Assembly: GCA_043803105.1 (NCBI GenBank)
Contig: JAZDKJ010000006.1
Location: forward strand, 364,222-428,221
Origin: Candidatus Woesearchaeota archaeon
GTDB lineage: Archaea > Nanobdellota > Nanobdellia > Woesearchaeales > JAZDKJ01
DNA length: 64,000 nucleotides
Reading direction: 5' to 3'
In this document: positions 7,778 through 13,784 of the stretch, in pieces
How the letters are laid out: each line of letters starts with the position of its first letter
Numbering within the stretch: the first letter of the stretch is position 1
Translations under genes and position numbers: made by a program
Notes under the pieces: model-generated
What the model was told of the DNA's origin: nothing
Databases searched by the model: none
Seen by the model: the letters and a program-made list of their open reading frames with translations, nothing else

Positions 7778-8137
7778 TTAGTGTACAATTCTCATTTTTC
7801 CAGCCATGACTAAATTGTGCTCAATCTCTAGCTTGTTGAATCTTTTTTCCATCGCTAGGATCTTATCGACTTTTTGCTCTGTTTGCTCTACACCGTTCTT
7901 TATCTTACCTAATTTGTATGCTCCCCCGAGAATCGAAATGCCTCCTCCAAGATATGGTATCATCTCTACCCACACTGGAGAGCGCACAATTCCAAAAACC
8001 TTAAGCAGCGCCCACAGGAGTATTGCCAGTGCTCCTATGACAATCAGGGAATCCCAGAGGTCAAAACTTGCGTTGAAGAGTTTTTTTAGCTTTTGAATTG
8101 TCCTCATGCTGGCAGCAATAATAAAAAGGTCGTTCAT
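7778..8137 (-). CDS. small membrane protein, hypothetical
   Basis: 119-aa ORF with two hydrophobic helices and a C-terminal coiled-coil-like tail. Last gene of the 13050-7778 minus-strand cluster. Confidence 0.5.
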   Translation of the reverse strand: MNDLFIIAASMRTIQKLKKLFNASFDLWDSLIVIGALAILLWALLKVFGIVRSPVWVEMIPYLGGGISILGGAYKLGKIKNGVEQTEQKVDKILAMEKRFNKLEIEHNLVMAGKMRIVH

Positions 8138-8204
8138 AAACTTTTGTCTTCGATAAATCCAGATTGTATGAATGAGCCGTAAATCTTCCGAAAGTCACAA
8201 CATC

Positions 8205-10154
8205 TTATTTCTGCGGTTCGCTCGATGTCCAGTCCTGCTTGCACATGTTGTCGATTGCAGAGTATGCAAAGCTGCCCAGAGTATAGTCGAGAAGTTTCCA
8301 TGTCAAATCTCCTGCCAGGGCCTTGTTTGCCTGCTGTTGGGCTTCCCTCTCTGCTATTGCTTTTTGCTCGGCAGGGTCATTGTATGCTCCTGCAGTCTTC
8401 GCACTCAACACACTGGCGTATACTATTCCATCCGTACCGAGCACTGTTTTTTCCCCACTTAGTGCTATCCTTTCAGACCTGATTGGCCCACCCTCATCAA
8501 ATGTGTACTCTGTAACCATGGCCCCTGCTTGTGCAATATAGGTGCTTGATATTGCTCGTGTTGGAGGTGGAAAACTTTGTGGTGTACACACAGTGGGAGG
8601 AAATCCCTGCTTGACATATGCACCGTAAGGATACTCACTGTTAGGTTCTTGGTATTGGTAGTCCTGTTGTGCAAAATAGACTTGGGTGAGTGTAGGATCC
8701 TGCGCAGCTTGGCTGGCGCTTATGTCTATGATATTTATATCCGGATATATTGTGCTTTTCCAGCAGTTGCAGTTTGTATTGAAATGGTAAGAACCTTCTG
8801 ATGCTATGCTTGATATCTTCCCGTTATACCCGTTTTGGGTTAGGTCAGTTTGGAGTGTAAGATAGCTCATCCCTGATTTTAGGAGAGGGGTGTTGCCCCC
8901 AGCCACAATATAGTAACTGTATTTACCTTCCTTGTCAGTTGCAGATTGGCTATCAATTTTGCTTATTATTATCTGCCCCTTGTTCCCGTCAAAAACAACC
9001 CCTGCCTTCACATCATCAACCGTAACTGAAGGTTTGACTACCTGTCCGTTCTTCGCTACCCCATCATACATTTTGTCTCCATTCTTGTCAACCAATCTGT
9101 AATTATAGGGCACGGGTCTTCCAGACAACCTGTTCTTTATGTCCTCAAAGTGCAGGTCAGTGCATGTTGGTTCATTAAAGCTCGTTGACATCCAGTTCCA
9201 TGACTCTGTTACCTGTGATATCATTCCAGGAATGTTGGTGAGCTCCATCAATTTCAATACGCATTTTGGTATGGCTGCCTGCTTGATGATTTCTCCCAGC
9301 TGGCTTGCAAGGTATTTTGCCAGGATTGACATAAGTATCTTAGCCACAGTCTTTAGTATAGAACCTTTCCAGTACATGCACAGCGCTTCATCTAGTTGTT
9401 TCTCGCATGCCTCTGTTGATATTCCTGCGGTGCACGCCTGTTCGATGCAGCAATTATACACCTGGTAGATTGTCTTGAGCTTTCTTATGTTAAATAGTAT
9501 TGCAACTGGGCACAGGCAGTAAGTTGCAGTGTAGATGTTCTCATAAGGATTCAGGTGGAAATCTCCGATAGCCAGGTTTCCGTACCCTCCGCCTGTTGTT
9601 GTCTTTCCAACTCCAACCGTGTTGCTCAGGCTTTCAGAGTTCTGTCCTAGCACCGGCACGTTCTTCACTATTCCTCCGCATCCAAACTTTCCTGTGCACC
9701 AGCCGCAGCTTACAAGACAGCACAATCCCTGCACTACCGGCAATTTGTACACGCTAGACCATGCCTTAAACACTTTTTGCATTGCTATGCAAAGTTTGGT
9801 GCCAGTGAGTAGTCCAAGCAGGCAGCAGTCCCCTGCCTCGTCTCCTGAGAACCCTATTAAGCTTGATATTGCCGATAGCACGATGTCTATGGCGCTCATT
9901 ACAGTGCATATCATGAGCATTATTGACGCTACGCTCTCAAGCGTTCCTATTACTCCATTGTCAAGCGAGTCAGCTATGCCTGAGCTTTTCTTGTGCTTCT
10001 CAATGCACTGCTGTCCAGCCTCAAGGTCTGTTGTGCCAGTTTCCTCTGTTGCCTTACCAGTAACTGGATTTACCTCTGCAAATGCGATTGAAGTGCAAAA
10101 TGGGATGCTGATTATGAGAAAGATTAGGATTTTGGCTACTTGCTGTTTTATCAT
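8205..10154 (-). CDS. Cys-rich secreted/membrane protein, hypothetical
   Basis: 649-aa ORF with an N-terminal signal peptide (ILIFLIISIPFCTSIAFA-EV). Several hydrophobic helices and clustered Cys (DCCLLG, GLCCLVSCGWCTGKFGCGG, YNCCIEQAC). I recognise no family. Confidence 0.6.
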   Translation of the reverse strand: MIKQQVAKILIFLIISIPFCTSIAFAEVNPVTGKATEETGTTDLEAGQQCIEKHKKSSGIADSLDNGVIGTLESVASIMLMICTVMSAIDIVLSAISSLIGFSGDEAGDCCLLGLLTGTKLCIAMQKVFKAWSSVYKLPVVQGLCCLVSCGWCTGKFGCGGIVKNVPVLGQNSESLSNTVGVGKTTTGGGYGNLAIGDFHLNPYENIYTATYCLCPVAILFNIRKLKTIYQVYNCCIEQACTAGISTEACEKQLDEALCMYWKGSILKTVAKILMSILAKYLASQLGEIIKQAAIPKCVLKLMELTNIPGMISQVTESWNWMSTSFNEPTCTDLHFEDIKNRLSGRPVPYNYRLVDKNGDKMYDGVAKNGQVVKPSVTVDDVKAGVVFDGNKGQIIISKIDSQSATDKEGKYSYYIVAGGNTPLLKSGMSYLTLQTDLTQNGYNGKISSIASEGSYHFNTNCNCWKSTIYPDINIIDISASQAAQDPTLTQVYFAQQDYQYQEPNSEYPYGAYVKQGFPPTVCTPQSFPPPTRAISSTYIAQAGAMVTEYTFDEGGPIRSERIALSGEKTVLGTDGIVYASVLSAKTAGAYNDPAEQKAIAEREAQQQANKALAGDLTWKLLDYTLGSFAYSAIDNMCKQDWTSSEPQK

Positions 10155-10156
10155 TT

Positions 10157-12328
10157 CTAACTTACCTCTGGCGCAACAAACTGTGAATAATCGTTAACTG
10201 TGTAATCTACCTGTTTTGTCTTGCCGTCGCAGTTATCATCGACAGTGATCTTTCCGCTTAGCCTGCTGCCATCAATGACTGTCTCAGTGATGCTGTTTAC
10301 CTCAAGGTTCTGGTCTGAGAGGAAATCCACCATGCAGTAGAATTTTATTTTGCTGCCCCTTAGGCTGGTTGCTTTCCATCCAAAGTTCCCGTTGCCAATT
10401 ATCCAAGGTCCTTCGTAGTTGGAATGCGTCAAGGGATTGTTGTCAAAGTCCACTGTCACTGTGTTGTCTCCTTCTTTATAGGTTGAGGGCTTTATGACCA
10501 CGTTGCCTTTGGCCAGCATTCCCACCCGATAGTTTCCGCTTCCTATTATCATGCTCTTCATTGTTGGGTATAGGACAGTAGGGTTTGCAGACGCCCCGTT
10601 TATTGATATTGTTATCTCGTCTTTTGGCCTTGGCTGGTAGCGTGTTTCCTGCAACATTTCTTCAGGTGTTTTTCCGCAGCTGCTTCGTAAATATCCATTT
10701 GTCAGATAATAGTTCTCCAGGAATTTTCTTGCAAGCACAAGCTCCACTTCAATGCTGTAATTCTTCAGTTTCTCCAGTTTGTATTCGCTTTTTACAGCAT
10801 CAACAATCGTGCTGTAACCTGCCTTCTGCAACTTAAGCTGGAGCCCTGCGCATTTCGGCAGCTTTAAGGAGGCTCTGCCGCTGGAGGCTGTCTCTCCTGC
10901 ATCGCATTCGTTGATTGTGTTGTTGCATTGGAATCTGACACCAACTCCAGGCAATAATCCTGTTTCATTCGTTGTGACTACACTAGCCTGCGTGCTTACG
11001 TTGTTGCAGTCAAAGACACTTTTCATGGTCTCGCTTCCGAAAAATGCTGTCAGGTTCACTTCGCTATATGGATTCTGTCCAGTGCACTGCCTGTTCTGGT
11101 TTCCGCACAGGAAGAGTTGCATCGGGAAATAAAACGAGAAGCCCTGTTTTTCCTGCACCAAATTACCAATAATCTTGGCAGAATCGCTGTCTGTGATTTT
11201 TATCACCACAGGATGTGTCAAGAAGTACTTGAACCTGTAATCATAAATGCAGAAGCTTGGGAGGAATGGTATGCTTGTCTGCGATTCCTTGTCCGGGCTA
11301 ATCACGTTGCCGCTTGTGGGTTTGATGTCAAATTTGTTATCTGATTGTGCAGGGTAACTGAATTCTACGCTTATTGAGCTAAGATTTTCGAAATAATTCC
11401 TGATAAAGCTGTCATAAACTCCCTGGACTGAAGCGTCGTTTGAAATCACTCTTTCAAACTTTGTTCCGGCCATCTTTAGGTATGGAAAATTTTTTGAAAG
11501 TATGCCTTCAAGATTTTCCTTGACTTCATCTTTCGTCCATGTTACGTATTTGCAATCTGTGCTTGAGTCAGAGAAGCTGAACGGCGGAAGGTCTTTTGCT
11601 CCCTTTTCTGCCCCGGTATAGCTGTACAGAGAAATCAGTGACTTTGCGTGGTCTTCAAGATAAGTGTCTGCAAACTCTCTTGTGACTAATTCCATAGCTA
11701 TCTCATGGATCAGCGCCAGGTTTACATCCACCTGATAATTGTAGTTGTCCACTTCATACTGTTTTTCGTTCTGTGTGATCTGGATTGGCCAGTGAAGATC
11801 AATTGTTGCCTGTTTGCCGAACCTCACTGTGGTGTTTATTGTTCCAGTCTTGATAACATAACTTTTTTTTCTGAAGACCTCAAAGTCCGTGCATCTCGGC
11901 AGGTTTTCTGTGATGTATCTAGCTAGCTCATTTTGCATGTAATCTGTTGAAGGTACAGAAATCGAATCTTCGGTGATCCAGTAAGGGACCTTGTTCTTTC
12001 CTGTGGCGTCAATAACCTGAATCATGCTCCCAGTTTTAACCACAGTCCTATCGCCGCTTATGCCTGTTGTTTGTAGCTCGGTAGGAATGTATATGAACCC
12101 CGCCTGAAGCCCAAGGATTTCTATTCCTGAATTTGCATAATCACTTAGACACTGTTCCACATATGTCTTAACCTGTTGAGCAGGCTCTGCAAGTTGTAAT
12201 GCCCTTACCTGTTCGACCTGGATTGGCTGCTCTGTTGTTCTTGCCCAGCTAAAGTAGAAGATTGCCGCAGCTATCAGCATGATTATTCCGATGATTATGA
12301 ATATGGTTATCTGTCCTCTTTTTTCCAT
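10157..12328 (-). CDS. large extracellular protein with class III (type IV pilin-like) signal peptide
   Basis: 723-aa ORF. The N-terminus MEKRGQITIFIIIGIIMLIAAAIFYF matches the archaeal prepilin pattern: basic residues, G-Q cleavage site, then a hydrophobic helix. The rest is unrecognised. Confidence 0.6.
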   Translation of the reverse strand: MEKRGQITIFIIIGIIMLIAAAIFYFSWARTTEQPIQVEQVRALQLAEPAQQVKTYVEQCLSDYANSGIEILGLQAGFIYIPTELQTTGISGDRTVVKTGSMIQVIDATGKNKVPYWITEDSISVPSTDYMQNELARYITENLPRCTDFEVFRKKSYVIKTGTINTTVRFGKQATIDLHWPIQITQNEKQYEVDNYNYQVDVNLALIHEIAMELVTREFADTYLEDHAKSLISLYSYTGAEKGAKDLPPFSFSDSSTDCKYVTWTKDEVKENLEGILSKNFPYLKMAGTKFERVISNDASVQGVYDSFIRNYFENLSSISVEFSYPAQSDNKFDIKPTSGNVISPDKESQTSIPFLPSFCIYDYRFKYFLTHPVVIKITDSDSAKIIGNLVQEKQGFSFYFPMQLFLCGNQNRQCTGQNPYSEVNLTAFFGSETMKSVFDCNNVSTQASVVTTNETGLLPGVGVRFQCNNTINECDAGETASSGRASLKLPKCAGLQLKLQKAGYSTIVDAVKSEYKLEKLKNYSIEVELVLARKFLENYYLTNGYLRSSCGKTPEEMLQETRYQPRPKDEITISINGASANPTVLYPTMKSMIIGSGNYRVGMLAKGNVVIKPSTYKEGDNTVTVDFDNNPLTHSNYEGPWIIGNGNFGWKATSLRGSKIKFYCMVDFLSDQNLEVNSITETVIDGSRLSGKITVDDNCDGKTKQVDYTVNDYSQFVAPEVS

Positions 12329-13050
12329 ATGAACCTCTCTGTGTAATGAGCATAATAGTTTCGTGCCCAGCTGATTAGTGGCAGTGCTATCATAACCATC
12401 ACTAACAGCTTGAAGAACTGGTCTAATCTAGGGAGCACAAGAAATCGCAATATCACAACCATGAATCCTATCACCGCGTAGGGAACCACAAATTTATGGA
12501 ACCTGCATCCAGTCCAGAAAAGCGCCTTGATGGATTTTTTTATGCTCCGCGTTCTGGCATAAGAGAAAAGTATAATGGTGTTGAAGTGCAATGTAGCCAT
12601 CCCAATGATGACAAACAGGACATTATTATTCAGTTTGATTATTGAAAACAAGGCAATTACGATTGCGACACATAACAGGCCATAGTTGAGCAACGCCATT
12701 TGCCAGAAGTCTTTCAAGGAAAATCTCGTGCCAACCAGCCTGCTCCATATAATCCCTTTGAAGAGGCTAAACTCCGCTATTGCTGCCACAAAGAACAATC
12801 CTATCAAAATGAACAGCGTCGAAAGAAAACCTGCCAGCATATGTAACTGTTCCTGCGCATGGGCTGGGTCAATTGCTGCATTTAGGTTTACCGGCGTGGT
12901 TGCCCTGACTGTCAATGCCCACACAAGAAAGGTGCAGAATAGCGTAGCATAGAAAAGCAGGTCATAGCCATAGGCCACTAGAATCTTCTTGACTTCAAGA
13001 CTTTGCAGAAGAACCTTAAGTTCCTGCTTAAAATACCCTCTTTCAGTCAC
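12307..13050 (-). CDS. polytopic membrane protein, hypothetical
   Basis: 247-aa ORF with about 6 hydrophobic helices. Overlaps the next gene by 22 nt. Confidence 0.55.
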   Translation of the reverse strand: MTERGYFKQELKVLLQSLEVKKILVAYGYDLLFYATLFCTFLVWALTVRATTPVNLNAAIDPAHAQEQLHMLAGFLSTLFILIGLFFVAAIAEFSLFKGIIWSRLVGTRFSLKDFWQMALLNYGLLCVAIVIALFSIIKLNNNVLFVIIGMATLHFNTIILFSYARTRSIKKSIKALFWTGCRFHKFVVPYAVIGFMVVILRFLVLPRLDQFFKLLVMVMIALPLISWARNYYAHYTERFIWKKEDR

Positions 13051-13076
13051 AGATCTTTCTCAGACTGCAGCCCTAT

Positions 13077-13784
13077 TTATATCTTTTTATGGATGTCCTT
13101 TACCTTGCCGAAATCCAATATTTCTCCATCAGAGACCACATAGGCCTCAAAGTCCCGGATTTTATTGTATGGTCCTAACAAATCATCGCTTGTGATGTCA
13201 GTTCCGTAGCTGGCTGAGCTGAATGATGGCATCACTATCAAGTCTGCCTTGCCATATTTTCCCTTCAGAAAACACTTGTAAGTCTCTGCCCTGGCCCCTT
13301 CCCTGATGGTTATTGCAGGATGCATATGCCCGATTATTATTGTCTTTGCTTTCTTTGGAATCTTCTGCTCGACATGCCCATGCATGAGAAAGACATCATC
13401 TATCATTATGTTGTCCACTATCCGTACATTCTTTTTCTTTGCTATTGGTTCGAGTATGATGTCATGGTTGCCCTTGATTAGCGTGACTTTTGCTGACTTG
13501 CTTAAAAGATCAAGCACCTTCATTGTCTCTCTCCATTCCTGGCTAGACACCTCTCCAAATTCGTGCTTGACGTCGCCATTTATGATGATATGTTCTGGTT
13601 TTGTTTTTGCCATTATCTTTTCGAGTTGTTTCAATAATTCGCGGAGCTGAAACCTAGGTATGAAGAAGCCCTGCTTGTTCAATGCCTCCTCAAAGCCAAT
13701 GTGCAGGTCAGAAATGACCAGTGTCTTACATTTCTTAAGGTGCAAGGCAAGGTCGATTATCTCGATTCCAGGATGTATTTCCAT
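13077..13784 (-). CDS. metallophosphoesterase (archaeal SbcD-related/calcineurin-like)
   Basis: 235-aa ORF with the motifs ISDLHIG, INGDVKHEF, GNHD and MHGH. Confidence 0.8.
   Translation of the reverse strand: MEIHPGIEIIDLALHLKKCKTLVISDLHIGFEEALNKQGFFIPRFQLRELLKQLEKIMAKTKPEHIIINGDVKHEFGEVSSQEWRETMKVLDLLSKSAKVTLIKGNHDIILEPIAKKKNVRIVDNIMIDDVFLMHGHVEQKIPKKAKTIIIGHMHPAITIREGARAETYKCFLKGKYGKADLIVMPSFSSASYGTDITSDDLLGPYNKIRDFEAYVVSDGEILDFGKVKDIHKKI

Follow-up and report, generated by a model that had tools for sequence, protein, structure and literature searches.

What do four tightly packed genes without a recognizable family contribute to a woesearchaeal cell? The question is raised by a locus in a metagenome-assembled genome (MAG) of Candidatus Woesearchaeota, of which one 64-kb stretch, hereafter the window, was the portion inspected. 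A first-pass annotation of this sequence had described four co-directional, closely packed genes that might encode an attachment or cell-contact apparatus, and the coordinates and spacing of the open reading frames (ORFs), all on the minus strand, agree with that layout. G1 (12307..13050), the first gene of the unit, has a GTG start and encodes a polytopic membrane protein of 247 residues. It overlaps by 22 nt with G2 (10157..12328), which encodes an exported protein of 723 residues with a class-III-type signal. After a gap of 2 nt follows G3 (8205..10154), encoding a Sec-exported, Cys-rich protein of 649 residues, and 67 nt further on lies g4 (7778..8137), a 119-residue ORF that adjoins G3 and falls outside the conserved module. 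G1, G2 and G3 correspond to the hypothetical proteins V1837_04035, V1837_04030 and V1837_04025 (100% identity each), encoded on a contig of 542,637 bp. The answer that we propose, with moderate confidence, is that G1, G2 and G3 form a chromosomal cell-envelope module specific to DPANN archaea of the Woesearchaeales type, the products of which would act together at the surface, likely in recognition or attachment.

The failure to recognize a family for the four proteins was confirmed by searches of Pfam, NCBIfam, PHROGs and PADLOC, in which no match to any of them rose above noise level, and by profile searches of the PDB with alignments of G2 and G3, which returned no relatives. In the literature we found nothing specific on this family or on woesearchaeal surface proteins. 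Homologues were nevertheless collected for G2 (24 sequences, down to about 21% identity) and G3 (24 sequences, down to about 27% identity), and a G3 profile retrieved 350 representative clusters at E≤0.001 among 1.84 billion representatives. These numbers indicate that G2 and G3 are real genes rather than chance ORFs and that G3 belongs to a small, lineage-restricted family. All named homologues stem from Woesearchaeota or Nanoarchaeota MAGs, as labelled in the record titles.

Linkage and paired divergence of G2 and G3

Thirty-two related loci were collected, 29 of them distinct; the first 29 and the window were mapped with local hidden Markov models, which left 26 non-redundant loci after removal of duplicates. 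A gene of the G3 family lies directly after G2 on the same strand in 31 of 33 G2 genes (26 non-redundant loci), with gaps ranging from −4 to 157 nt, and eight of the pairs share a 4-nt overlap typical of translational coupling. The genes flanking the pair vary between loci and include rpoH/rpoB, an intein-containing RNR, MetRS, PPDK, PolD, MCM and Cdc6. Very distant G2 homologues, with about 21-26% identity, also adjoin giant Cys-rich secreted proteins and G1-like proteins.

Two modules, type A and type B, are present in many genomes. Type A G3 proteins have their Cys-rich base at the N-terminal side, as in the window, and those of type B are about 1000 residues long with a divergent Cys-rich base near the C-terminus. 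The G2 sequences form two clades that match the architecture of the partner G3 in 30 of 30 pairs. Co-divergence of the pairs since the duplication follows from this and speaks for a specific partnership between the two proteins. Throughout the family G2 and G3 occur as obligate neighbours, and their paralogous copies diverged as matched pairs; the pairing of a Cys-rich protein with a pilin-signal protein, noticed earlier in the window, is obligatory family-wide.

Homologues of G1 occur immediately upstream of G2 in nine loci. In other loci they are located elsewhere beside the pair; in L020, L025 and L027 this is downstream of G3. The cluster had been regarded as a unit of four genes. This holds for G1, G2 and G3, which co-occur in differing genomic contexts, but not for g4. 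A lack of conservation as a unit, which would have refuted the first-pass idea, was thus not observed for the three genes.

Two further features of the related loci may be recorded here. Tandem G2-G3 modules are present in L003, L008, L016, L020, L025, L027, L029 and L030, where the second G3 is mostly type-B-like, and several genomes have the first G3 divided over two genes, with a signal peptide or three transmembrane (TM) segments at the start of the second. In addition, the module is adjoined in 17 of the 26 loci by an oppositely oriented gene of a family that we call F2 (270-430 residues), for example L003 (9228-10376, minus strand), L008 (10417-11610, minus strand) and L007 (3664-4887, minus strand), besides 14 others. 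F2 proteins consist of an N-terminal cytoplasmic helical domain, one TM segment, a beta domain and C-terminal Cys repeats, and many contain CxDGxxNQxExxxDCGGxC motifs. The members from L003 and L015 were scanned and matched no Pfam family. F2 is not found near the module in the window or in its closest relative, L001.

Sequence features of the three proteins

The N-terminus of G2, MEKRG-QITIFIIIGIIMLIAAAIFYF, has the build of a class III signal, in which a short basic N-region with Lys or Arg at −2 and Gly or Ala at −1 leads directly into a hydrophobic stretch of about 20 residues. Together the signal and the hydrophobic helix, MEKRG-QITIFIIIGIIMLIAAAIFYFSW, occupy 12245..12328 on the minus strand, with a predicted prepilin-peptidase cut after Gly5. 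Hydropathy, on which all TM assignments in this work are based, places a single N-terminal hydrophobic segment at residues 7-25, straight after MEKRG-Q. The class III signal proposed for the 723-residue protein proved to be a family-wide feature: [KR][GAS]Q followed by a hydrophobic helix is found in 30 of 33 G2 locus copies, the exceptions being one copy with HAQ, one truncated at a contig end and one with a probably mis-called start. An alignment of 24 G2 sequences (A2) opens with x(1-20)-[KR]-[GAS]-Q and about 20 hydrophobic residues, and Q6 is invariant. No other ORF in the window has such an N-terminus.

Proteins with class III signals in archaea comprise type IV pilins, archaellins, EppA-dependent DUF361 pilins and the non-filament sugar-binding proteins of Sulfolobus. 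Pilin-like proteins of M. maripaludis that are predicted EppA substrates have leaders of 5-13 residues ending in Gly, with Gln at +1 (PMC3875500), and the short basic leader of G2 with its terminal Gly, the Gln at +1 and the approximately 20 hydrophobic residues resemble this type. A Glu at +5 is present in bacterial and Methanococcus pilins and absent from those of Sulfolobus and Haloferax (PMC3875500). G2 is in this respect like the latter, since all family members have Phe or a different hydrophobic residue at position +5, and it also differs from known substrates in having no match to Pfam Class_IIIsignal. From structural pilins G2 is set apart by a roughly tenfold larger size, a flexible linker after the helix and the lack of visible assembly machinery nearby; its cleavage is, moreover, a prediction. 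On these sequence features G2 appears to resemble archaeal class-III-signal surface proteins, but membership in the pilin or archaellin family is not demonstrated.

An AlphaFold2 model of G2 (pLDDT, the predicted local distance difference test score, of 83.9) provides a layout in which the signal (M1-G5) and Q6 are followed by the hydrophobic helix up to about residue 30, a poorly conserved linker of low model confidence (residues 33-44) and an ectodomain of four domains. D1 (48-235) and D2 (236-420) are alpha/beta domains without a fold match, D3 (about 440-532) is a seven-stranded beta-sandwich of the transthyretin or carboxypeptidase-regulatory-like type, and D4 (533-723) is a larger, beta-rich domain. 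The invariant Cys residues are C60 and C146, and the nearly invariant ones C441 and C475. Structure comparison, which together with profile searches had been recommended for these proteins, returned generic beta-sandwiches only for G2, of the kind seen in surface proteins including SlaB and Gram-positive pilins, and nothing for G3; a pilin or archaellin fold was not found for G2.

The machinery expected for pilin processing and assembly was sought in the window and in the related loci, as the first-pass annotation had advised for the genome. None was found: the scanned ORFs of the window contain no Peptidase_A24, type IV filament ATPase or platform protein, the precomputed Pfam gene tables of L001-L008 and L030-L032 list no assembly ATPase, platform protein or prepilin peptidase, and the ORFs with a Walker A motif near modules in L001-L029 are only MCM and Cdc6.

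G3 starts with a signal peptide (residues 1-26) that ends in a Sec-type cleavage site, A-F-A/E. It contains 24 Cys residues, with CC doublets at 110/111, 145/146 and 235/236. The mature part can be divided into three regions. The Cys-rich helical base, residues 45-340 (9135..10022, minus strand), carries 16 invariant or near-invariant Cys in alignment A1, and its core motif reads SPYENIYTAxxCLCPVAILFNLRKLKTIYQxYxCCIEEAC; over residues 201-250 the family has a mean identity to the window protein of 71-72%. The hypervariable middle, residues 341-590 (8385..9134, minus strand), is conserved neither in length nor in sequence: for the greater part of it the mean identity to the window protein is 5-10%, and the closest homologue has 28% here versus 62% in the base. 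The third region, residues 591-649 (8208..8384, minus strand), is a conserved C-terminal helix with the motif AYxLTWxLLDxTLGxFAYxKIDxMCK. Lengths of G3 homologues range from 260 to about 1800 residues. The AlphaFold2 model of G3 is all-helical and of low confidence (pLDDT 53), and no fold match was obtained for the base. Six long G3 relatives contained no informative domains, apart from MopE Cu-binding repeats in one of them. An identity as a VirB6/TrbL-type membrane protein of conjugation or DNA import, judged by a VirB6-like polytopic helical fold and an adjacent VirB4-type ATPase, was also considered for the base and rejected. The Cys-rich base is an undescribed domain family. A loose motif, [IV]-T-G-x-A-[VT], was seen soon after the signal peptide or last TM segment in a minority of G3 proteins (VTGKAT, residues 31-36, in the window) and in a few other secreted neighbours. 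This ITGxAV-type motif is too loose and too infrequent to interpret.

The signal peptide, Cys clusters and CC doublets that had been reported for the 649-residue protein are all present, but the several TM helices attributed to it were an overstatement. Hydropathy of the window protein gives a signal-peptide-like segment and one strong internal segment, and in family-averaged profiles only two helices after the signal peptide, 75-93 and 269-287, reach borderline TM hydrophobicity. Several homologues carry charged residues within them. Five split versions of G3 are informative about topology: their C-terminal motif resides on a second polypeptide that starts with a signal peptide, a signal anchor or three TM segments, and the charges place its C-terminus outside. 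The C-terminal motif is therefore extracellular, and a fused G3 must have either zero or two TM segments after the signal peptide. A stretch of 700-900 residues without a TM-grade segment precedes the Cys-rich base of type-B paralogues. Since the helices are borderline and sometimes charged and the long type-B stretch is free of TM segments, a wholly extracellular, disulfide-bonded base is favoured, possibly lying at the membrane surface.

The distribution of N-x-S/T sequons also bears on the location of G3. The window protein contains none in 649 residues, versus 4.2 expected, and an alignment of 23 G3 sequences holds 28 versus 102 expected, 27 of these 28 being situated in the linker before the base or in extensions past the C-terminal motif. 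In 119 G3 representatives, which are mutually related so that their sequons do not count as independent trials, the observed-to-expected ratio over whole proteins was 0.46, versus 0.99 for the reverse motif S/T-x-N. Inside the profile envelope, which defines the G3 body, 137 sequons were observed versus 473 expected (0.29), and in the flanking segments the ratios were 1.02 and 0.85. As controls, G2 had sequons at 0.92-0.95 and other neighbouring proteins at 1.03 of expectation. Long G3 relatives behave likewise, and uninterrupted runs of up to about 1,500 residues in them are free of sequons. Because cytoplasmic proteins should be neutral in this respect, the depletion indicates that the G3 body meets the oligosaccharyltransferase and that its modification is selected against. 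Contact with this enzyme is in keeping with an extracellular location. The avoidance may be due to tight packing, insertion into a membrane, transit through a channel or the binding of glycans.

For G1, hydropathy gives six hydrophobic segments, which supports the six TM helices assigned before. A homologue search gave just two sequences, and the G1 family was built from synteny instead. It is very divergent (15-35% identity), small and fast-evolving. Conserved features are a single invariant Asp, D30, in the first segment (motif DLLFY), the motif KGLIW after segment 2 and W-x-R-x-Y-F at the C-terminus. Scanning 13 members against Pfam at E≤5 gave no family and nothing consistent. An A24 prepilin peptidase (PF01478) was rejected for G1 on the grounds of one invariant Asp instead of two, no GxGD motif and no Pfam match in these 13 members, and a CPBP protease, VKOR or DsbD-like enzyme because of the single invariant Asp and the lack of conserved Cys/His motifs. 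We treat G1 as a membrane partner with no activity assigned to it.

g4 and the surrounding sequence

The protein encoded by g4 has one clear TM segment and a coiled-coil-like tail; of the two TM helices ascribed to it, the second amounts to a weak, Gly-rich hydrophobic stretch. Like its neighbours it has no family match in the four databases named above, and a g4 homologue was not found in any related locus, the closest relative L001 included. The syntenic interval of L001 contains no comparable ORF and instead harbors tRNA-related sequence and a tRNA gene. With no counterpart in related loci or at the syntenic position, g4 was rejected as a member of the module. It may be a young or fast-evolving orphan gene.

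Upstream of G1, a putative TATA-like box, ATATAAATA (13074..13082, minus strand), was read by eye from the sequence. It is centred about 28 nt before the GTG start and overlaps the stop codon of the preceding phosphoesterase gene; by inference only, it would fit a leaderless G1-G2-G3 transcript. The phosphoesterase itself (13077-13784, minus strand) is a calcineurin-like protein of the SbcD-related archaeal family TIGR00024 (E 4.5e-52), separated from G1 by 26 nt. Among the related loci it stands ahead of the module in L001 alone, and it is probably just a neighbour. The remaining genes of the window are of a housekeeping nature, namely a split rpoB, rpoH, rpoA', an Lhr helicase, aIF2, eRF1, TyrRS and a purine-synthesis operon. 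GC content is uniform, and that of the module is like its surroundings.

Several tRNA-related sequences lie beyond g4. Rfam predicts a tRNA at 7559-7433 (minus strand) with an intron of about 57 nt, which was missed by ARAGORN. At 7680-7660, 120 nt upstream of it, there is a 90%-identical copy of the first 21 nt of this tRNA (acceptor strand and D arm), followed by short hairpins. In L001 (11950-12562) such a tRNA-5'-fragment unit is repeated three to four times in tandem, with 120-128-nt spacing, ahead of the tRNA. The repeated fragments could be halves of split tRNAs or decayed duplicates. Between 6962 and 7226 on the minus strand two further tRNA-like sequences were recognized by eye that Rfam leaves uncalled at a threshold as loose as E≤1. 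In the first (about 7226-7058) the acceptor ends match and about 95 nt are inserted. The second (about 7044-6962) resembles tRNA-Lys(UUU) and ends in the T loop, TTCGAATG, which overlaps the start codon of rpoH.

Possible roles at the cell surface

A surface location of the module is supported by the export signals, the conserved, even-numbered Cys residues, the beta-sandwich ectodomains of G2 and the sequon statistics. In the arrangement that we propose, G2 would be exported, and a prepilin-type peptidase with its gene elsewhere would remove the class-III-type signal by a cut after Gly5. The N-terminal helix would then hold the ectodomain of about 690 residues and four domains at the membrane via a short flexible tether, and this ectodomain would contain disulfides and could be glycosylated. 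G3 would be exported by Sec and cut after Ala26. Its Cys-rich base and C-terminal helix may form a conserved foot that docks on G2 and possibly also on the membrane, with the hypervariable middle displayed outward and the whole body kept free of N-glycans by selection. G1 would be a membrane-embedded partner for assembly or anchoring.

Several points weigh against this proposal. About half of the G2-G3 pairs have no adjoining G1, no prepilin peptidase is visible in the window, and none of the members yielded an adhesin, lectin, enzyme or other functional domain. G3 may alternatively adopt a two-TM hairpin topology with a cytoplasmic Cys-rich loop, and docking of the conserved N- and C-terminal parts of G3 is conjecture because the model of this protein is poor. 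Gene linkage, co-divergence and the sequence signals are what was observed, and from these we infer processing, docking and function. Of the earlier idea of an attachment or cell-contact apparatus, it is the surface location that the data support; a contact role follows from architecture only, there being no adhesin domain. A role in attachment or host contact would be plausible.

A different assignment for G2 would be that of a modular minor pilin, located at the tip or decorating the shaft of a pilus whose machinery is encoded elsewhere, with G3 associated with the pilus and the module serving as its adhesive head. In agreement with this, the class-III-type signal, which has Gly at −1 and Gln at +1, is conserved in the G2 family, and in the predicted structure helix 48-74 and the four beta-strands at 87-115 that follow it may loosely recall a pilin head. 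Pilin genes are often located apart from their machinery. Bacteria are known to have large modular pilins that carry adhesin modules, and the report on PilB of Streptococcus sanguinis describes a pilin-type N-terminus fused to a large module with a proposed role in adhesion (PMC8179133), an arrangement that G2 shares to the extent of its N-terminus and large extra module. PilB is bacterial, is encoded inside a pilus locus and has a recognizable adhesin domain, whereas G2 has neither such a domain nor pilus genes nearby. We consider a minor pilin possible but rather unlikely.

By analogy with SlaB and SlaA of Sulfolobales, G2 and G3 could also be the anchored stalk and the canopy of a two-component woesearchaeal S-layer or envelope lattice. 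The likeness is generic: there is no sequence homology, the proteins do not qualify as S-layer proteins, and the membrane anchor is at the opposite terminus, as that of SlaB is C-terminal. G3 further differs in being helical and Cys-rich at its base and depleted of glycosylation sequons, and its sequon avoidance and variable length weaken the case. We find a lattice doubtful. Equally doubtful to us is that G3 is a secreted membrane-active protein, such as a pore, fusogen or effector directed at the membrane of another cell, that G2 presents and G1 protects or matures. The helical base, in which one or two helices are hydrophobic without being robust TM segments, would suit such a protein, as would the glycosylation-site-free body with N- and C-terminal appendages that are not so restricted, a property that insertion or channel passage would need. 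A small, fast-evolving, polytopic G1 would fit as well, and the cytoplasmic bridges between DPANN archaea and their hosts are built by proteins described as still unknown (PMC11420986). Yet the 16 conserved Cys suggest a rigid, disulfide-locked domain that is ill-suited to large refolding, the conserved base and hypervariable middle are the reverse of the pattern in polymorphic toxins, G3 shows no fold similarity to known pore-formers or fusogens, and the organisms have no known host.

That the genes are unrelated neighbours, or were inserted by a virus or mobile element, is largely refuted and in our judgement very improbable. No gene has a functional annotation, and g4 is truly an unrelated neighbour, but the near-universal adjacency of G2 and G3 and the co-divergence of the pairs contradict chance. 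A viral, mobile or defence-system origin was rejected since there were no PHROGs or PADLOC matches, G3 relatives were absent from IMG/VR viral contigs, no integrase or other mobile-element family appeared in the precomputed Pfam tables of the looked-up loci and the GC content is like that of the flanks.

An attached life on other cells is assumed for DPANN archaea, and we know of no cultured Woesearchaeota. For Nanobdellota, the proteins that make contact structures are stated to be unknown; in strain YN1 an attachment organelle with likewise unknown components mediates contact with the host (PMC11420986). G1, G2 and G3 are candidates of the right kind from a DPANN lineage; they differ from the YN1 organelle in being tied to no imaged structure. 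A more specific version of the proposed envelope module, which we regard as unlikely, is a host-contact device of Woesearchaeales in which G2, tethered by its pilin-type helix, would present G3, and G3 would use its disulfide-stabilised, glycan-free body, with its hydrophobic helices and hypervariable recognition region, to bind and penetrate the envelope or membrane of a partner cell. If true, no protein components of a DPANN cell-cell bridge would have been named before these, and there would be an explanation for the need of G3, and of G3 alone, to stay clear of N-glycosylation. If the module is merely a structural envelope pair, it would still be the first candidate for a woesearchaeal cell-surface scaffold.

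In either case, few other sets of surface-protein genes in Woesearchaeota are lineage-wide and strictly linked like this module. It has three testable properties, namely a pilin-type processing site in G2, a co-diverging G2-G3 pair and a partner selected to stay unglycosylated, and it adds a new Cys-rich domain family of about 350 representative clusters to be annotated. The module offers defined candidates for how DPANN archaea build their surface or touch other cells.

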